Assembly (NCBI GenBank): GCA_964396165.1
Contig: CAYNEF010000009.1
Location: 52,354-84,353 of the forward strand
From: an uncultured Pseudobdellovibrionaceae bacterium
GTDB lineage: Bacteria; Bdellovibrionota; FAC87; UBA2466
Length of the DNA: 32,000 nucleotides
Direction of reading: 5' to 3'
Below, piece by piece: positions 4,489-23,192 of this stretch. The translations under genes were made by a program, and so were the position numbers. How positions within the stretch are numbered: the stretch's first letter is position 1; each line of letters opens with the position of its first letter. Below the pieces are notes generated by a model. The model had not been told where the DNA came from and ran no database searches. It saw nothing but the letters and a program-made list of their open reading frames with translations.

Positions 4489-6570
4489 ATGAGTGACGTC
4501 CTCGGTAACTCGATTACATACATTAAAGGAGTGGGCCCAAAGCTTGCTCAAGTGCTGCACAAAAAGGGAATCGACACGCTTGAGGATGCACTTTATTTTG
4601 TGCCGCGTCTTTATGAAGACAGAAGGCGCATTATCCCTATCGCTTCGCTTCAGCCCAATACTACAGCCACAATTTCTGGAAAAGTTGTCAGCGCAAAAGA
4701 AGTGGGATTTACGCGTTACCAGAAACGTTTTGAAGTAACGCTAGCTGATGCGACAGGACGTACCGTTCTTACCTGGTTTAGAGCGTATCCTAGTCTGAAA
4801 GAAGAGTTCAAAGTGGGAACTTCCTTTCTCGTGAATGGAGAAGTGAAGTTGTACCGCGGGCTTTCGCAGATCACCCATCCAGATTACGAAAAAATTGAAG
4901 AGTTTGTAGACGGAAAACCAAAGGCTTCGATTAATTTTGGGCGCATTGTTCCTGTTTATAGCGAGACCGAAGGCTTGCACCAGAAAACAATTCGCAAAAT
5001 CATGGGGGAAGTTGTCCGTACTTCCGTAAAAGAATTGCATGACGTCTTACCGGAAGAAATGCGTGCACGTCTGGAACTTCCCACACTCAGACAAAGTTTT
5101 GTGGATCTCCATTTTCCAAAAACATTGCCGGAAGAAGGGCTTCCGTTAGATGCCCTGAAAAGAATCATCTTTGAAGAGTTCTTCGTATTGCAACTTGGCT
5201 TAGGCTTAAGAAAAAGAGAAACGCAAAAGAAAACGGCGCCTGCGTTAGTAAATAAAAACGGTGCTTTGGAAAAGTATATTGCAGGCCTTCCTTTTTCTCT
5301 TACAGGAGATCAGAAAAAGGTAATCGAGCAGGTGAATCACGATATTGCTCGTCCGCTCATGATGACAAGACTTGTGCAAGGGGATGTGGGATCTGGAAAA
5401 ACAGCCGTGGCGTTTGCAGCTGTCTCTGTCACAGCAAGTTCTGGTTACCAAACTGCGATCATGGCACCCACGGAATTACTCGCCATTCAGCACGCAAAAA
5501 GTGCTGCGGCGTTATTGCCTGACTTAAAAGTTGCACTTCTTACGCATAGTACGGCTAAGGACAAAGAGCTTCACAAGACGATTCACTCAGGCGAAGTGAG
5601 TTTGGTGATTGGAACGCATGCTCTCTTTCAAGAAAACGTAAAGTTTAAAAAATTGGGTCTTGTGATTGTGGATGAACAGCACCGCTTTGGGGTAGAGCAA
5701 CGCGCGGATTTACTTAAAAAGAGCGAGAAAGAAAATGCGCATCTTTTAATGATGACGGCCACTCCGATACCGAGAACTCTTGCGCTGACACTCTATGGAG
5801 ATTTGGACTTAAGTATCATCCGGGAAAAACCGCAAAACCGCAAAAAAGTGAATACGACGATTTTAAAAGATCGGGACTTGCCACGCGTTTATCAAAAGAT
5901 CAACGAGACTGTCGCAAGGGGCGAACAGGTTTATATAATTTATCCTTTGATTGAGGCGTCTGAAAAATTGGAATTAAAATCAGCGACTGAGATGTACGAG
6001 AAGCTTCGAAAAGAAATATTTCCTACGCTGAAACTTGCTTTGTTGCACGGTAGGATGAAGGGACAGGAAAAAGAAGACATCTTAAAGGCATTTAAGAACC
6101 GCGAATTTGATATTTTAGTTTCTACTACGGTAATTGAAGTAGGGATCGATGTTCCCAATTCGACGTTAATGGTGATTGAACACCCTGAACGTCTGGGGTT
6201 ATCGCAGTTGCACCAGTTAAGAGGACGGGTGGGTCGTGGAGACAAGCAAAGTACGTGTTTACTTGTGGTGGATAAATTCGTTTTACCTCGTTTAAGAGTA
6301 ATGGAAACATCGGATGATGGCTTTGTGATCGCGGAAGAAGATTTAAAATTCCGTGGGCCAGGAGAGTTTTTGGGTACAAGACAAAGCGGTCTTCCTGGTT
6401 TCAGGGTAGGGCATATCTTAAGGGATGCATCCTTATTGGAACTAGCGCGAAGTGAAGCGGAAGCAATTCTTTTGAAAGATCCCACACTGGATTTAAAAGA
6501 AAATTCCGGCATTCGTAAAATGGTAGAAACCCGCTGGAAACAAAAAATTGAGAGACTTAGAGGAGGGTAA
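4489..6570 (+). CDS. recG: ATP-dependent DNA helicase RecG
   Basis: Helicase motifs GDVGSGKT, VIVDEQHRFG, MTATPIPRT and QLHQLRGRVGRG, with an N-terminal wedge/OB region. I prefer the ATG at 4489 (MSDVLGNS...) over the in-frame TTG at 4450 used by the ORF track. Confidence 0.93.
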   Translation: MSDVLGNSITYIKGVGPKLAQVLHKKGIDTLEDALYFVPRLYEDRRRIIPIASLQPNTTATISGKVVSAKEVGFTRYQKRFEVTLADATGRTVLTWFRAYPSLKEEFKVGTSFLVNGEVKLYRGLSQITHPDYEKIEEFVDGKPKASINFGRIVPVYSETEGLHQKTIRKIMGEVVRTSVKELHDVLPEEMRARLELPTLRQSFVDLHFPKTLPEEGLPLDALKRIIFEEFFVLQLGLGLRKRETQKKTAPALVNKNGALEKYIAGLPFSLTGDQKKVIEQVNHDIARPLMMTRLVQGDVGSGKTAVAFAAVSVTASSGYQTAIMAPTELLAIQHAKSAAALLPDLKVALLTHSTAKDKELHKTIHSGEVSLVIGTHALFQENVKFKKLGLVIVDEQHRFGVEQRADLLKKSEKENAHLLMMTATPIPRTLALTLYGDLDLSIIREKPQNRKKVNTTILKDRDLPRVYQKINETVARGEQVYIIYPLIEASEKLELKSATEMYEKLRKEIFPTLKLALLHGRMKGQEKEDILKAFKNREFDILVSTTVIEVGIDVPNSTLMVIEHPERLGLSQLHQLRGRVGRGDKQSTCLLVVDKFVLPRLRVMETSDDGFVIAEEDLKFRGPGEFLGTRQSGLPGFRVGHILRDASLLELARSEAEAILLKDPTLDLKENSGIRKMVETRWKQKIERLRGG

Positions 6571-6657
6571 TTAATTAGCATATTGTGGAAGAGGGGGTAA
6601 GCGCTCCAACCCCGAAGTCGCGTTACCCCCTCTTCCACAATATGCTAATTAATTACC
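6566..6657. repeat. hairpin A: perfect 35-bp inverted repeat (6566-6600 / 6623-6657) around a 22-nt loop
   Basis: Checked base by base: 35/35 Watson-Crick pairs. The left arm contains the recG stop codon (TAA 6568-6570). No T-tract follows. The loop GCGCTCCAACCCCGAAGTCGCG is the reverse complement of a sequence homologous to the loop of hairpin B. Confidence 0.9.
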
Positions 6658-9928: not shown

Positions 9929-10987
9929 ATGAAAAACAATAATCCAAGTGGGTTACTGAAAAGTGTAGGCTTGTTTGTGGCGGCAATCGCTTTTTGCGCT
10001 GCTCAAACAAATACAATGGCGGGTGTCGGCGGATTCGTTGATGCTCAAATCTCTGGCGGTACAAATGCTACTGCTGGAACAACTGCATCCAATACGATTG
10101 GTTTTGGAGTAGCTGATGGTGCTGTTTATTTGTCCAAGGAATTGGGCAAAGGTAAGGTCATGGTAGATCTTCCATTCAAAATGAACACATTAGGAGCTAC
10201 ATCTTTAGGTCTAGCTGCTGCTGCTAAAGCTCAAGCCTATGTCAATTTCGGTTACGATTTTGGCATGGATTGGACACTAGGTCGTTTCGACAGTCCATTT
10301 GCTAATGAATCAAATGACTCTGTTGATTTGGCATATGCATTCCAATCTGGATTGTATGCATACGTTCCACACATCCACCAAGGGTTGATGTTGAATTATG
10401 CAAACAGTGGCTTCGCTGTTAAAGCGCTCGTATCTAATAGTGCTGGTGCTGCAACTCGTGAAACTGCTGAAGGCGCTGGTTCTTATGCAGACAATTACGA
10501 ATACGGCGTATTAGCAAAATACACACACGAATCCTTCTGGGTTGGTGCAGGTTACTACATGCACAAGCCAGCTGGTGGTGACAACACAGGTTCTCTCATC
10601 GATGTAAACTTAGGAACAAAGATGAACGATCTGTCTTTAGCACTTGATGTGATTTCCACAAAAGCTGCTGCAGCAGGTATCGATAGCGGTTTTGCTGTAG
10701 CTGCAAACGTTTGGTACGCAGTTAACAAAACTTGGGGAGTTGGATTACGCCCTGAATACGCCAGCAAAGCGCTTGGATACATGGCAACAACTACAACTGG
10801 CGCAAACTACAGCCAGTTCCAAGTAACTGCCGGTTCCACATGTGCACTTACGGATGATCTTAAAGTACGTATGAACTACGTATTTGCATCTTCCAAAGCA
10901 AATGGTGGCACAGGAACAACATGGACAGAAGCTGCCACAAGCACTTCTTCTCATGGTGGTGTTCTTTCCGCTGTGTACAAGTTCTAA
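9929..10987 (+). CDS. outer-membrane beta-barrel porin-like protein
   Basis: Signal peptide ending AQTNTMA, an alternating Gly/aromatic-rich beta-strand pattern, and a C-terminal ...LSAVYKF with terminal Phe typical of OMPs. It is followed by a strong terminator. Confidence 0.7.
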   Translation: MKNNNPSGLLKSVGLFVAAIAFCAAQTNTMAGVGGFVDAQISGGTNATAGTTASNTIGFGVADGAVYLSKELGKGKVMVDLPFKMNTLGATSLGLAAAAKAQAYVNFGYDFGMDWTLGRFDSPFANESNDSVDLAYAFQSGLYAYVPHIHQGLMLNYANSGFAVKALVSNSAGAATRETAEGAGSYADNYEYGVLAKYTHESFWVGAGYYMHKPAGGDNTGSLIDVNLGTKMNDLSLALDVISTKAAAAGIDSGFAVAANVWYAVNKTWGVGLRPEYASKALGYMATTTTGANYSQFQVTAGSTCALTDDLKVRMNYVFASSKANGGTGTTWTEAATSTSSHGGVLSAVYKF

Positions 10988-11009
10988 TTTAGTAATCGTT
11001 TAATAAGAA

Positions 11010-11040
11010 GGCGATCTGGGAAACCAGATCGCCTTTTTTA
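11010..11040 (+). terminator. rho-independent terminator of the porin gene
   Basis: GGCGATCTGG-GAAA-CCAGATCGCC (10-bp GC-rich stem, GNRA-type loop) followed by TTTTTT. Confidence 0.85.
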
Positions 11041-11193
11041 TTTTGCCCTCTCGTTTATCTCATCCATTTTCCGCTCTTGGGGCACAACCTACGACAAAAC
11101 ATTCTATCGTGGCCAGAGCGTCCTACTAGGGTGCTTTCTACACAAGCATAGATTCTGTAAATTGCTTTGATAATAGGAGTTCCGAATAGCAAA

Positions 11194-11271
11194 AACGGGT
11201 GGCACATGCATTTCTAGTGATGGCGCGCCAAGAGCGACAGCACTAGAAATGCGTGTGACAGGACCCGTGTT
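11194..11271 (+). repeat. structured element C1 (GGGTGGC...GACAGGACCCG family), plus-sense copy upstream of the HD-GYP gene
   Basis: Layout is AACGGGTGGC, 14 nt, TGATGGCGCGCCAAGAGCGACAGCA, 12 nt, GTGACAGGACCCGTGTT. A 17-bp stem (11203-11219 / 11241-11257) has one T-G pair. ACGGGT/ACCCGT can close the base. Confidence 0.75.
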
Positions 11272-11384
11272 TCTCGCTCATACACTAATTACGCGCAGCA
11301 GTATAACGCGATACTCCATTGTGAAAAAACAATCATTTTTTATTCTAGTAAATATGCCGATAAGCCTTAGAGGTAATACGGCCC

Positions 11385-13325
11385 ATGTCCTTGTCACACG
11401 ACGTACATTCCAGACATACATTAGTGGTCTTTAAACAGACACCAGACTTGAAAAAAGTCGAAATCTCGCACGACTGGAATACAGCTGTCATTCAATCTCA
11501 CGATCAACTCCTTGCTTGCGTAGATCGCGCATACAAAAACGCACAAAGAATCGTCGTAATCGTATCCGAACTGGATTACGAAAAAACCCGCGTACTACTT
11601 AACTTAAGAATGCAGCGGGAAAACTCTGTTGCCTACGGCCTTCTTGTCGTCGCAAAAGATCCTACTAAATTCATGGAAAAAGAAGGCGGCCCCGCCGAGC
11701 TTCTCGATGCAGTAGGGGATAAAGAAGCCAGAAAAAATATTCAGATATCCCTTCTACGTGCCGTGCGATTTCTTTCACTTTCTGAATCAAAAGGAATGCA
11801 AAAAATCGGACAACGCACACTGGAGAGAATGAACGAAATATTTATCGATCTCTCTGCCGAAAGAAACTCAGAAAAACTACTCGGAAAAATTTTAACGAAA
11901 ACGATGGAAGTCACCAATGCGAAATCCGGTGCGCTTTTCATGGTGCAGGAAACAGATGGCGAAATGTATTTCCGCCTGAAAATCACAGCAGAACAAACTA
12001 AAGAACCTGTCTTTCAAAACACAACGTTAAGAGTTGTAGAAAACAGTGTATGTGGTTATGTCGCGTTGACAGGAAAAATCCATAATATTTCCGACATCAG
12101 CAATATGCGGGCAGGTTCCATCCCACAAATGCACCGTCAGTATGATTATGATTACAACGGCACAGCTGTTTGCATGGTTACGGTTCCCTTAAAAAATAGC
12201 AGACACGAAGTAATCGGCGTGTTGCAACTTGTAAATAAAAAAGACGAACGAGATGTTTCTGGAAATGGAATATGCCCATTCGAGGGAGAAGACGAAAGTA
12301 TTTTGATGTCTTTCGGAACACAAGCTGCCATCTGTTTGGAAAATGTGGATTTGTATGCGGACATCCAAAGACTGTTCGAAGGTTTTGTGAGAGCTTCCAT
12401 TACGGCCATCGAATCCAGAGATCCCAGCACGGGTGGTCACTCAGAACGTGTCGCTAAAATGTCTGTAGCTCTAGCACGCGCAACCACAGAAGTGGATATC
12501 GGCATTTACCGCTCTGTAAAATTTAAAGAAGAAGAAGTTCGAGAGCTCGAATACGCAGCGATGTTGCATGATTTCGGAAAAATCGGTGTACGTGAAGAAG
12601 TTCTCGTGAAAGCAAAAAAACTCTACGCCCACCAGCTCGAAGGAATTCAAGAGCGTATTAAAATTTGTAAAGCGGCTGCGAAAATCAATTATCTCGAAAA
12701 AAGATTGAGACAATCGGGAAATGATTTGGATTTAGAAAAAGACTACTTAAATAGAGTTGCTCAGATTGAAGGATATAAAGATATTATCTTGCAGGCAAAT
12801 GAACCAACTATCCTCATGAATGAAAATATTCAGGTTCTGGATAAGATAAGATCTGAGCAATTGCTGCTGCCTGATGGATCTAATATCGCTCTTCTTACAG
12901 AAGAGGAATTTAAAGCTCTATCTGTAACTAAGGGCTCGTTGACTGAGAATGAACGTGTGGAAATCGAATCACATGTTCGACATACGTATCAATTCTTAAA
13001 AATGATTCCTTGGACTAAGGATTTTAAACACCTGACTGAAATTGCTTACTGCCATCATGAGAAGTTGGATGGCACCGGGTATCCACGCGGTTTAGTTGCG
13101 CATGAAATTCCTTTGCAGTCTAAGATCATGACTATTGCAGATATATTTGATGCTTTAACGGCATCTGATCGTTGGTACAAAGAAGCTGTACCTACTGAAC
13201 GTGCGATTGAGATTCTTTTTAAAGAAGTAGAAAAAGGTAAGATTGATCCTGTCCTCTTTGAGCTGTTCGTAGCTAAGAAAATATTTGAAATTGCCCAGCC
13301 GAAAACTCTTCACCAAGTCGCCTAA
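11385..13325 (+). CDS. HD-GYP domain c-di-GMP phosphodiesterase with a GAF domain and a receiver-like N-terminus
   Basis: HD motif AAMLHDFGKIG and HHEKLDGTGYPRGL (HD-GYP). A central GAF-like region (SGALFMVQE...GVLQLVNKK) is present. The N-terminal ~130 aa look like a CheY-like fold without the acidic pocket. Confidence 0.9.
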   Translation: MSLSHDVHSRHTLVVFKQTPDLKKVEISHDWNTAVIQSHDQLLACVDRAYKNAQRIVVIVSELDYEKTRVLLNLRMQRENSVAYGLLVVAKDPTKFMEKEGGPAELLDAVGDKEARKNIQISLLRAVRFLSLSESKGMQKIGQRTLERMNEIFIDLSAERNSEKLLGKILTKTMEVTNAKSGALFMVQETDGEMYFRLKITAEQTKEPVFQNTTLRVVENSVCGYVALTGKIHNISDISNMRAGSIPQMHRQYDYDYNGTAVCMVTVPLKNSRHEVIGVLQLVNKKDERDVSGNGICPFEGEDESILMSFGTQAAICLENVDLYADIQRLFEGFVRASITAIESRDPSTGGHSERVAKMSVALARATTEVDIGIYRSVKFKEEEVRELEYAAMLHDFGKIGVREEVLVKAKKLYAHQLEGIQERIKICKAAAKINYLEKRLRQSGNDLDLEKDYLNRVAQIEGYKDIILQANEPTILMNENIQVLDKIRSEQLLLPDGSNIALLTEEEFKALSVTKGSLTENERVEIESHVRHTYQFLKMIPWTKDFKHLTEIAYCHHEKLDGTGYPRGLVAHEIPLQSKIMTIADIFDALTASDRWYKEAVPTERAIEILFKEVEKGKIDPVLFELFVAKKIFEIAQPKTLHQVA

Positions 13326-13356
13326 AAATAATTTTTAAGGATGAGATTTTAAGATG

Positions 13357-13434
13357 AACACGGGTCCTGTCACCTGCGAATGGGATGCTGTCGCTCTTGG
13401 CGCGCCATCACCCCATCCACAGGCGCCACCCGTT
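13357..13434 (-). repeat. structured element C2, minus-sense copy downstream of the HD-GYP gene
   Basis: The reverse complement aligns without gaps to C1. All three conserved blocks are identical, both variable blocks differ, and the variable blocks are mutually complementary. All 3 stem mismatches are G-U on the minus strand. Confidence 0.75.
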
Positions 13435-13545
13435 CCCCGTTTTTTTCAATCCATAGTTCTAACGGAAAAAAAACAGTTCTATAAAGTCAGCGGAATGTAG
13501 CAGAGTGGTTCTATTAAACTGATTTATAAAATTTGTAAGTGAGAT

Positions 13546-13723
13546 CCTTTCAGGAAGAGGAGTGTGGGTGGCGCCTTCGTTAAAACCAGTGGCCCCGGGT
13601 AGTGATAAGCAAACTAGCAATGAAAACGAAACTTGCAGAAAGATCTCACAGCGAAGATCCAGTCCAAGGGGAGCATCTGGTTACCACGCAGGTGACAGGA
13701 CCCGCACTCCTCTTCCTGAAAGG
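13546..13723 (+). ncRNA. candidate structured RNA C3 (178 nt), a large member of the GGGTGGC...GACAGGACCCG family
   Basis: A 24-bp closing helix, CCTTTCAGGAAGAGGAGTGTGGGT (13546-13569) / ACCCGCACTCCTCTTCCTGAAAGG (13700-13723), has a single U-G pair on the plus strand. It shares GGGTGGCGCCT and CGCAGGTGACAGGACCCG with C2. Internal hairpins lie at about 13609-13636 and 13642-13659. Confidence 0.55.
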
Positions 13724-13860
13724 TTTGCAATAATCAATACCCTATACAATTTTTTTCTCACACAAGTACTCTACGCAATGAGCAATCAAGTACTTAAAAT
13801 ATTCCCAAGCACACCTGGCATTTTTTTCCCGCACGAGAGGGAAATTCTTGCCGATCTTTC

Positions 13861-13899
13861 TGTCAATACATTGACAAGATTTAGGAACAATCATACAAT
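13861..13899 (+). promoter_or_regulatory. sigma-70-type promoter (TTGACA-17 nt-TACAAT) with a palindrome over the -35 element
   Basis: -35 TTGACA at 13871-13876 and -10 TACAAT at 13894-13899, with exactly 17-nt spacing. TGTCAAT-AC-ATTGACA (13861-13876) is a 7+7 inverted repeat containing the -35. It lies about 115 nt upstream of the activator start. Confidence 0.55.
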
Positions 13900-14014
13900 T
13901 AAAGAGTAATATCCTTCTGTAAAAAATTAATTCCATAAAAAAAGTAGAATAGAAAAAAGCCACAAAGAGTAAGTTATTCCTTACTGTATTGTGAGTTTGT
14001 GTTTAAGGAGCCGA

Positions 14015-15373
14015 ATGAATCGCGTTCTTATTTATGAACCTGACGTTGAATTAGGTACCAGATGCAAAGAATTACTGGAACAAAACAATCTGTGGGTCAT
14101 ACACGAGTGGGACCTTAATAACGCCTTATCGTTATACGCAAAACAGTTATTTCATGTTTGTGTTTGGCGCTGCGATACAGAAGACGATTTGAAAATAATT
14201 CCCACGTTGAGAAATACGCGTATCGAAGCGGGAATTATTATCAGCAGCAATAAAACCGATTCTGATTTCATCGTGAAGACAATGCGCGAAGGCGGTTCTC
14301 ACTATTGGAATAGACAGAGTGAGCTAACGAAACTTCAATCAGCTGTAAAAGAAACTCTTTCTAAAATCGTGGATGATACGGAAACCATCGATTTTACCTT
14401 TCCGTTTCAGGAATTTATTGGAAGACATCCCAAAATCATCGATATTTTTCAAACTATCAATAGCATTAAAGATACGGATTCTACCGTACTCATTACGGGT
14501 GAAAGCGGAACAGGGAAAGAAGTTGTTGCTTCTGCAATCCACAAGCTAAGCCCTCGTGGTAGATCGCAAATGGTGGCAATCAATTGCGGCGCCATTCCCG
14601 GAAGTTTGATTGAAAGTGAACTATTCGGTCATATGAAGGGCGCTTTTACAGGCGCAACTCATAATAGAATGGGACGATTTCAGATGGCAGGAAGTGGAAC
14701 GTTGTTTCTGGATGAAATAACGGATCTTCCTCTTGATTTGCAGGCTAAATTACTACGCGCCATACAAAACAAAACATTTGAGCCCGTTGGCAGTGCTGTC
14801 AGTCTCAATCTCGAAGCTCGCATTATTGCAGCGACAAACAAAGACTTGGAAATCGCTGTCGAAGACAAAAAATTCCGTGAAGATCTGTTCTACCGACTGA
14901 ATGTAATTCCCATTTATATTCCGCCTTTGAGAAATAGAAAATCGGATATTCCGCTTCTTGTGAAATCATTCATGGATAAGTTCAGCAAAGAACATAACAA
15001 GGTCTGTGAAGGAATATCCCAGGACGCCATGAGAACCTTAATGGAATACCAATGGCCGGGTAACGTAAGAGAGTTAGAAAACCTCATCGAACGAGTCATT
15101 GTACTGAAGAGAAGCGTCGGTGCAATCGAATTGAAAGACTTGCCCGTGCATTACTTTAAAAACGTCAGAATGGATCGGTATGTCGCAAATGTGGAGCTTC
15201 CAGACGAAGGTTTGGATTTCAACAATGCGGTAGATGAATTCGAAAACGAATTGATCATTCAGGCTTTACAGAAAACGGATGGCAACCGCAATAAAGCCGC
15301 ATCCTTGTTGAATTTGAATAGAACAACGCTTGTGGAGAAATTGAAGAGAAAGGGAATCAGATTGGCTGCTTAA
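14015..15373 (+). CDS. sigma-54-dependent transcriptional activator (NtrC family) with a divergent receiver domain
   Basis: AAA+ motifs GESGTGKE, GAFTGA and DEITDL, with a C-terminal Fis-type HTH (NRNKAASLLNLNRTTLVEKLKR). The ATG at 14015 is preceded by AAGGAG, so it is preferred over the GTG at 13991. Confidence 0.9.
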   Translation: MNRVLIYEPDVELGTRCKELLEQNNLWVIHEWDLNNALSLYAKQLFHVCVWRCDTEDDLKIIPTLRNTRIEAGIIISSNKTDSDFIVKTMREGGSHYWNRQSELTKLQSAVKETLSKIVDDTETIDFTFPFQEFIGRHPKIIDIFQTINSIKDTDSTVLITGESGTGKEVVASAIHKLSPRGRSQMVAINCGAIPGSLIESELFGHMKGAFTGATHNRMGRFQMAGSGTLFLDEITDLPLDLQAKLLRAIQNKTFEPVGSAVSLNLEARIIAATNKDLEIAVEDKKFREDLFYRLNVIPIYIPPLRNRKSDIPLLVKSFMDKFSKEHNKVCEGISQDAMRTLMEYQWPGNVRELENLIERVIVLKRSVGAIELKDLPVHYFKNVRMDRYVANVELPDEGLDFNNAVDEFENELIIQALQKTDGNRNKAASLLNLNRTTLVEKLKRKGIRLAA

Positions 15374-23101: not shown

Positions 23102-23192
23102 AATTAAAAGGTGGGGATTCCAGGCGGAGTAGTTAATGCGACTGGGGTTCGGAGCACTTAACTACTCCGCCTGGAATCTCCGCCTTTTAATT
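23102..23192 (+). repeat. hairpin B: 35-bp inverted repeat (23102-23136 / 23158-23192) around a 21-nt loop, in the fliE-fliF gap
   Basis: 33 Watson-Crick pairs plus 2 positions that are G-U only on the plus strand (23112/23182 and 23115/23179). The loop TGCGACTGGGGTTCGGAGCAC is homologous to the reverse complement of the hairpin A loop. No T-tract follows. Confidence 0.9.

Follow-up and report, generated by a model that had tools for sequence, protein, structure and literature searches.

An enlarged hairpin between an HD-GYP gene and a sigma-54 activator gene is an atypical member of a family of intergenic hairpin elements

We analysed a 32-kb stretch of DNA from an uncultured Pseudobdellovibrionaceae bacterium (32,000 nt of contig CAYNEF010000009.1, assembly GCA_964396165.1; hereafter the window), in which a GAF/HD-GYP-type gene is followed, across a long non-coding gap, by a sigma-54 activator gene. 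The gap contains a 178-nt hairpin, designated C3, for which a preliminary description had suggested a role as a regulatory RNA tied to these two genes. C3 is one of three copies of a single hairpin family in the window (C1, C2 and C3); no fourth copy was found in the 32 kb. The family unit is a hairpin rod of ~75 nt with a variable outer helix (P1), a fixed loop module and variable P2 and P3 helices. C3 is an atypical member of this family, not a novel regulatory RNA, and it forms with C2 a head-to-head inverted doublet. The genes and family copies at the locus are as follows.

11189-11274 (core 11197-11266), + strand: C1, a typical family copy (covariance model 67 bits; fold z -7.1), 117 nt upstream of the HD-GYP ATG.
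11385-13325, + strand: GAF/HD-GYP-type gene (Pfam HD_5, 2.4e-31; GAF, 7.5e-11), bracketed by C1 (+) and C2 (-).
13354-13439 (core 13362-13431), - strand: C2, a typical family copy (covariance model 62 bits; fold z -4.95).
13546-13569, + strand: 5' arm of the C3 closing helix; the last 4 nt, GGGT, are the conserved helix of the family and the outer 20 nt are copy-specific.
13566-13576, + strand: conserved 5' block of C3, GGGTGGCGCCT (11 nt), with the GGGU helix strand, the GG bulge and the start of P2.
13577-13686, + strand: interior of C3 (~110 nt), in place of the usual P3 and apical loop.
13687-13704, + strand: conserved 3' block of C3, CGCAGGTGACAGGACCCG (18 nt), with the P2 strand, the ACAGG bulge and the ACCC helix strand.
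13700-13723, + strand: 3' arm of the C3 closing helix, located by pairing, fold and BLAST.
14015-15373, + strand: sigma-54 activator gene (Pfam Sigma54_activat, 2.2e-67).

Reverse-complement comparison of C3 gave 24 consecutive pairs between 13546-13569 (CCTTTCAGGAAGAGGAGTGTGGGT) and 13700-13723 (ACCCGCACTCCTCTTCCTGAAAGG). The only pair that is not Watson-Crick is T13565-G13704, a wobble pair on the + strand that corresponds to a C-A mismatch on the - strand, and BLAST aligned the two arms with 95.8% identity over 24 nt, so that both the helix and its single wobble are exactly as first described. The 178 nt folded at -82.2 kcal/mol compared with -51.0 +/- 4.6 in dinucleotide shuffles (z -6.8, equalled by 0 of 200 shuffles), and the - strand (z -6.5) and a fold with DNA energy parameters (z -6.7) gave similar values. 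The window has just two further local inverted repeats as large as this one. Blocks GGGTGGCGCCT and CGCAGGTGACAGGACCCG match C2 exactly, over the 11 and 18 nt reported initially, and kinship with C1 and C2 was borne out by the covariance model of the family, which found C3 at 13558-13711 with 30.1 bits (E 4e-4, 605 kb searched). When the filters were turned off the model did not recover C3, one possible reason being that its span exceeds the window length of the model.

The family follows the plan P1 - (AC)GGGU - GG - C-N-C - P2 ... P2' - G-N'-G - ACAGG - ACCC(GU) - P1', in which the fixed module pairs (AC)GGGU with ACCC(GU) and C-N-C with G-N'-G, with an asymmetric loop between these helices in which GG faces ACAGG, giving the end motifs GGGUGGC ... 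GACAGGACCC. An unbranched rod was predicted for 114 of 125 members, and 35 of the 125 carry the apical loop CGCGCAG-N3-7-CGAGCA, of which C1 and C2 have a variant form. The covariance model was built from 18 members and covers P1, the GG/ACAGG loop and P2. Over 96 distinct sequences, 89.5% of cells were paired, compared with 70.0 +/- 0.7% when partners were shuffled and 33-46% when the partner column was slid. Two-sided changes were found in 333 cells (116 +/- 10 in shuffles) and compensatory changes in 12 of the 18 pairs; at the pair adjoining the loop, G-C, G-U, A-U, C-G and U-A all occur and A-C never does. The family helices are maintained by compensatory change. Across P1 and P2, G-U outnumbered A-C by 88 to 16, which shows that the GGGUGGC strand is the one that folds, as RNA or as single-stranded DNA, in agreement with the earlier view that the + strand of C3 folds. 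Slightly divergent and decayed copies were also found by the model: GGGUGAC...GGCAGGACCC in L045, ACAGGCCCC in L067 and a truncated copy in L096.

Against this background C3 is unusual in both size and content. Its 24-bp closing helix is the longest among 105 distinct measurable copies (median 9, 90th percentile 13, next longest 20), and its core (13566-13703, + strand, 138 nt) is joint longest in a sample with a median of 74 nt, in which the metagenome pattern limited element length and the genome scan did not. Other enlarged members were L075, which has a 24-bp perfect P2, and L090 and L098, which are also long. The typical interior, P3 with the non-obligatory apical loop CGCGCAG..CGAGCA, is absent from C3; BLAST of the C3 interior against all fetched loci returned only a contig of the same organism and no likeness to the interiors of other members. 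The insert alone (13576-13689) folded at shuffle level (z -0.71 on the + strand, -0.75 on the - strand). The inner rod and two apical hairpins originally drawn there do appear in the minimum-energy fold, but they are no evidence of structure because the insert folds no better than shuffles. In addition, the C3 tail, GGUUUGCAAUAAUC, has no U tract, and a simple scan for intrinsic terminators made no call at C3.

Resemblances among the copies cut across their positions. The P2 of C3 resembles that of the C2 counterpart in L122, a contig of the closest related genome (GGCGC-TTCGT ... ACG-AG), and C1 and C2 share their apical loop. The copies are therefore related reticulately, as expected with sequence exchange between copies. 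The 7-mer CTTTCAG in the outer arm of C3 (13546-13569) is also the loop of the inner hairpin of the L122 C2 counterpart and lies inside the L122 C3 counterpart (L122 2135-2160 and 2330-2345); this may hint at the origin of the outer helix of C3 or may be a coincidence.

We then compared the same locus in related genomes. L122, whose activator is 91% identical and whose gene order is the same, has family copies at the same three places, with interiors that cannot be aligned with those of the window; both full L122 copies were also recovered by the covariance model. The L122 counterpart of C3 is only ~50 nt long (GGGTGGCACGGAGTGAACTCCCGTGTCGTCTTTCAGTGACAGGACCC); it has no more than some two outer pairs and folds weakly (z -1.1). 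Farther away no copy was detected: the spacer between the HD-GYP and activator genes is 240 nt in L123 (activator 79% identical), and 214 and 110 nt in L258 and L259 (activators 65-66% identical), where 21 kb of each locus lacked the family. C1 is common to the window and L122, and its absence from more distant relatives refers to L258 and L259. By this distribution the elements are insertions within one sub-lineage, and the long helix of 24 bp and the insert of C3 belong to the window genome alone. The preliminary description had named loss of the closing helix from homologous regions as grounds for refutation, and none of the four relatives preserves the helix. L258 also contains a 157-aa Y1_Tnp gene (11318-11791, - strand; PF01797, IS200/RAYT-type) inserted between the sigma-54 activator gene and mlaD; this locus carries no family copy.

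Three further features lie in or beside the gap, which spans the 689 nt between the stop codon of the HD-GYP gene (13325) and the ATG of the activator gene (14015) and had earlier been given as 660 nt.

13440-13446, + strand: run of seven T's that follows C2, read as its reverse complement, on the strand of the HD-GYP mRNA.
13562-13909, + strand: 115-aa open reading frame (ORF), judged spurious, without a Pfam family; L122 and L123 lack this region or differ there.
13871-13899, + strand: sigma-70-like promoter match for the activator gene, TTGACA-17-TACAAT (11/12), downstream of C3.

The reverse complement of C2 lies 35 nt past the HD-GYP stop and is followed by CCCCG and the T run. Read on the mRNA strand, the C2 hairpin and this U tract are likely to be the intrinsic terminator of the HD-GYP gene, a loose fit for which a simple terminator scan of the + strand hairpin made no call. 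The C2 counterpart in L122 has the same layout, with TTTTT directly past the hairpin. The block around the promoter match is conserved in L122 and more loosely in L123, and its position places C3 upstream of the promoter and not in the activator leader. The activator gene itself starts at ATG 14015; a mechanical ORF list gave GTG 13991, and public assemblies record only the 14015 product, whose homologues are named as Bdellovibrionaceae or 'Deltaproteobacteria' proteins from metagenome-assembled genomes. Between C2 and C3, the direct repeats AGTTCTA (13455-13461), AGTTCTA (13475-13481) and GGTTCTA (13507-13513) are present as reported, but do not occur in the corresponding L122 spacer.

Upstream of C1, a canonical intrinsic terminator (11005-11038; 15-bp stem, GAAA loop, T-rich tail) follows an OmpL-like porin gene (9929-10987); as it lies ~160 nt before C1, C1 is not the terminator of the porin gene. 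Elsewhere in the window, two intergenic hairpins (6566-6657 and 23102-23192) have 35-bp stems (100% and 94% paired) of unrelated sequence, and their 21-22 nt loops match each other when read in opposite orientations (CGCGACTTCGGGGTTGGAGCGC and TGCGACTGGGGTTCGGAGCAC). With ends of the form GCGNA...GAGCAC, these loops are similar to the apical loop of the family, and the two hairpins may be another type of module within the same mosaic system; no other fetched locus contained one.

These data bear directly on the proposal that C3 serves the HD-GYP and sigma-54 activator genes as a discrete regulatory RNA of ~180 nt or as a leader. The hairpin is very stable and occupies a long non-coding gap between two signalling genes, as this proposal would have it, but its helix and insert are not kept in L122, the element is absent from L123, L258 and L259, the structure of the insert does not go beyond chance, the C2-C3 spacer repeats are not conserved, the promoter-like site of the activator lies downstream, no Rfam match was obtained and the same blocks are found beside unrelated genes. 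The proposal is already largely refuted, and we consider it very improbable. More remote still is the notion that the region encodes the 115-aa protein. A gene caller did predict it in a Logan assembly contig of the same organism, but it starts inside the closing helix, belongs to no Pfam family and has a missing or different sequence in L122 and L123, and its dismissal in the preliminary description was sound.

The arrangement of C1 and C2, which flank one gene in inverted orientation, could also be read as a cassette: the hairpins would be folded single-stranded DNA recombination sites of the integron attC kind, used by a tyrosine recombinase, with C1 and C2 bracketing the HD-GYP gene. The asymmetry between strands, the conserved paired base, the unpaired asymmetric spacer with extrahelical bases, the second box and the terminal structure of variable length are all in keeping with such sites. 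However, RYYYAAC / GTTRRRY core sites are lacking, the copies are dispersed and do not form co-oriented arrays beside an integrase, and the synteny of the HD-GYP and activator genes is preserved without the elements in L123, L258 and L259, indicating that the HD-GYP gene is not a cassette delimited by C1 and C2. We give this reading very little credence.

To define the distribution of the family, one genome per species was first scanned with the 3' block pattern GCNNGTGACAGGACCCG and with the 5' block unconstrained. This pattern was too loose: ~60% of the 120 loci were chance matches inside genes of high-GC genomes. Leaving the 5' block free nevertheless made the scan informative, as GGGTGGC(A/G)C also lay at hairpin distance in ~45 loci. 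A metagenome scan with both blocks detected at least 120 loci in contigs of 33-75% GC. Matches to the covariance model were assigned to Omnitrophica (56.7 bits), Acidobacteria, Krumholzibacteriia, Solirubrobacterales, Acidimicrobiia and Nitrospiraceae, and the names Microthrixaceae, Vicinamibacterales, Aldehydirespiratoraceae and Ilumatobacteraceae also occurred among them; the family thus extends over at least six phyla. In viral contigs, 13 pattern matches were found; the model scored 0 of the 7 tested and the flanks of the remainder lacked P1 pairing, so that these matches gave no apparent sign of carriage by phage. A blastn search of a plasmid collection yielded no family match.

Family copies have been gained, lost, decayed and multiplied within genomes. 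Presence and absence differ among close relatives of the window organism, and the window and L122 have unrelated interiors at the same locus. The complete Acidimicrobiia chromosome OZ241886.1 carries at least 8 copies, scattered over both strands, and several have the same sequence, P1 included. The complete genomes OZ241894.1 and OY759762.1 are carriers of the family too. Whole units are duplicated in tandem in L033, L170, L200 and L250, 5' halves are duplicated in L200 and L232, and 3' halves form tandem arrays in L062 and L075 and, by reading of the flanks, in L077 and L080. Head-to-head inverted doublets were found in the window (C2/C3), L122 and L096, and many copies sit at contig ends.

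Several mosaic arrangements were also observed. Arrays of the 3' half plus ~20 nt of flank directly follow full copies (L062 150-400 on the - strand, L075, L077, L080 and L117), the L062 array consisting of five 38-nt units of GTGACAGGACCCGCCGGCCGGAGGACACGAGCACTTTC; such arrays may be the footprint of a copying mechanism. A group of high-GC metagenome contigs (L170 1444-1977; L250 8874-9409; L148, L183, L215 and L235) has the hairpin as the 3' module of a conserved, non-coding, tandemly repeated unit of ~268 nt. The upstream module of this unit forms a separate long-range helix (GGCCGGAGAU...AUCUCCGGCC), and unit copies that differ by a 1-nt indel speak against coding. A 46%-GC organism (L161 2810-2900; L201 585-700) has the hairpin followed by a different palindromic repeat (CCTGGATTCCCGC...GCGGGAATGACA), an arrangement like that of bacterial interspersed mosaic elements, with unrelated repeat modules side by side.

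The copies lie mostly just past gene ends, beside unrelated genes. When only neighbouring ORFs of at least 250 aa were counted, 52 of 70 copies were within 120 nt of a gene 3' end, and 18 of 70 were near a 5' end. Copies at gene ends lie 2-60 nt after the stop codon, and of the 52 copies at 3' ends 34 have the folding strand antisense to the gene and 18 have it in the sense direction. The 133 adjacent proteins matched 204 Pfam families (for example chaperonin, FtsH, H+-pyrophosphatase and EF-Tu domains). Among the best 25 of these 204, no family was seen more than 3 times, so that no enrichment was apparent, and neither a transposase nor any other mobility family, Y1_Tnp included, was present. 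Orientation showed no bias relative to the coding strand of the locus (29 vs 34).

Such behaviour leads us to favour, with some confidence, the view that the family is a non-autonomous intergenic repeat that forms hairpins, of the kind represented by repetitive extragenic palindromes (REP), REPINs and miniature inverted-repeat transposable elements (MITEs), and that C3 is an enlarged copy of it. A factor acting in trans, for which a single-strand DNA enzyme of the HUH type is the leading candidate, would recognise the fixed loop module and copy or move the element, and an inserted copy would act at most as a generic hairpin, that is, as a terminator, a block to read-through or a protector of 3' ends. 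At this locus, the ancestor common to the window and L122 genomes would have gained C2 and C3 between the HD-GYP and activator genes; C2, on the mRNA strand and with its seven T's, probably ends the HD-GYP transcript, and C3 would be its inverted partner, which acquired a 20-bp perfect outer helix and an unrelated interior of ~110 nt. Located between the C2 terminator and the next promoter, and without a U tract, C3 shows no sign of a specific role and probably does nothing particular for the HD-GYP and activator genes.

Several observations weigh against the repeat interpretation. No transposase or other mover was found, and tblastn with E. coli RayT over ~1.4 Mb of flanks gave nothing below E 0.1. 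The canonical REP tag GT[AG]G is absent from the family flanks, and target-site duplications are lacking in the flanks of near-identical copies. No long ORF-carrying version with matching ends and P1 was detected, the one 1-kb candidate lying inside a gene. The orientation of copies relative to GC skew was unbiased (25 vs 34, p 0.30), and single-strand DNA transposons are often biased. REP families are normally lineage-specific, and the combination seen here, an end module identical in at least six phyla and an apical loop that is conserved, would be more usual for a functional RNA or for an element that spreads horizontally. The collection scans demanded exact end motifs, which makes the invariance of the ends partly a product of construction and overstated. 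Finally, the window organism has only three copies in 32 kb, all around one gene, and a high copy number is thus not shown there.

A different account of the same data is that the family is a functional class of structured RNA, such as a protein-binding 3'-end element, a factor-dependent terminator or a small RNA, with the GG/ACAGG module and the apical loop as its functional core and C3 as a variant with an insertion. It would explain the strong covariation with wobble asymmetry confined to one strand, the cross-phylum module with its recurrent apical loop, the position shortly after stop codons, the A-rich 5' flanks of C1, C2 and C2', which on the opposite strand place a U tract behind the hairpin, and the contigs in which the element is the 3' module of the conserved ~268-nt non-coding unit. 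It fits less well with the occurrence of both orientations relative to the adjacent gene, the folding strand being antisense more often than not, with high-GC copies that have no U tract, with copies that decay or are missing from close relatives without replacement, and with C3, which lacks the apical module; near-identical dispersed copies and half-copy arrays are the behaviour of repeats. We regard this account as doubtful, although more probable than the other rivals. The two are not mutually exclusive and would overlap if a mobile element had been co-opted.

A further suggestion, which we offer tentatively, is that the GGGUGGC / GACAGGACCC hairpins make up a class of structured single-stranded element that extends across phyla and has not been described before, and that a dedicated partner would read the fixed GG/ACAGG loop module and, in many copies, also the apical CGCGCAG..CGAGCA loop. 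With the same reserve, the partner might be a new system for mobilising single-stranded DNA, unrelated to REP/RAYT systems of the GTAG type, or an RNA-protein system acting at gene 3' ends.

For the locus itself, the consequence is that a false lead has been removed: the presence of C3 beside HD-GYP and sigma-54 genes is no evidence of a regulatory RNA linked to cyclic di-GMP (c-di-GMP). The family is of greater interest than C3, as it combines an invariant asymmetric loop module and strong compensatory evolution with an occurrence at 33-75% GC in at least six phyla. If mobile, it would be a REP-like system without the defining GTAG tag and without a known transposase; if RNA, it would be a widespread 3'-end motif with a still unnamed partner. 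On the practical side, the family breaks metagenome assemblies, and its copies are mis-annotated by gene callers, the 115-aa ORF being an example.

No described family corresponding to these hairpins was found in Rfam or in the searchable literature. In Rfam, cmscan gave no match in the window at gathering scores and nothing relevant at E <= 10, and the 18 member loci gave no match at gathering scores except one tRNA; the known housekeeping RNAs and riboswitches that the preliminary description had named for checking (6S, signal recognition particle (SRP) RNA, c-di-GMP-I/II and others) were thereby set aside. Searches of the literature by sequence string, on both strands and in DNA and RNA spelling, returned only primer coincidences. 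The family is thus missing from both Rfam 15 and the literature that could be searched.

Individual resemblances to known motifs were also followed and rejected. Kink-turns consist of a 3-nt bulge followed by tandem G-A / A-G pairs; the 5-by-2 loop has a fitting size, but GG opposite ACA-GG offers no A at the required positions. A retron non-coding RNA was rejected as the next gene downstream of C3 is the sigma-54 activator gene and not a reverse transcriptase gene, and a sigma-54 -24 box (TGGCAC) as the -12 element is absent and Actinobacteria are not known to have sigma-54. The GGGUGG of T-boxes, the P4 strand of RNase P (ACAGAACCCGG), SRP domain IV, the GGA site of CsrA, tRNA-His ends, ops / JUMPstart and the cores of self-cleaving ribozymes did not fit the architecture and had no Rfam support.

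Among known multi-copy hairpins, TRIT is a terminator-like mycobacterial hairpin of conserved sequence, reported only from Mycobacterium and centred ~8 nt before the stop codon, for which its authors proposed the need for an extra cellular factor (PMC3152330). It is likewise a multi-copy palindrome tightly linked to gene termini, and often bidirectional; judged by its description, it differs from our family, which lies 2-60 nt after stops and in many phyla. Integron attC sites share the conserved paired base, the unpaired spacer bases that define the active strand and the very variable terminal structure, whereas the family has dispersed copies and no R/L core sequences, arrays or nearby integrase. 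MITEs (Correia / NEMIS, ERIC) are similarly small, non-coding, palindromic insertions able to supply hairpins to neighbouring transcripts; in contrast to them, the family shows no target-site duplications, its ends are unequal (GG vs ACAGG, a conserved 3-nt asymmetry) and its outer helix covaries instead of forming a fixed terminal inverted repeat. A MITE of the DDE type was rejected on the unequal ends and on the absence of direct repeats at the flanks of near-identical copies.

REP and REPIN elements are repetitive extragenic palindromes moved by RAYT / TnpA-REP tyrosine transposases (PMC3116915, PMC6006769), whose canonical mark is the tetranucleotide GT[AG]G on the 5' side of the hairpin foot (PMC6006769); a string search of one REP survey (PMC3733652) found no matching sequence. 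The family differs from them in its foot, (A/G)CGGGU with no consistent GT[AG]G in the flanks, in its unit length (~75 nt, and 178 nt in C3, vs 20-40 nt for REP), in that no RAYT was found near any family copy whose flanks were searched, in an end module that is identical in at least six phyla where REP families are normally lineage-specific, and in its conserved apical loop. The likeness is nevertheless extensive: both are extragenic hairpins in which mismatches or bulges make the two strands unequal, both have numerous dispersed and nearly identical copies in a genome, which lie in either orientation and mostly beyond gene 3' ends, both form inverted doublets and mosaic clusters with other modules, and both have neither a target-site duplication nor an ORF. 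Among the transposases, TnpA-Y1 subclasses 2.1, 2.3, 2.6 and 3 are not known to be associated with REPs. REP and REPIN elements are the kind of known element closest to this family.

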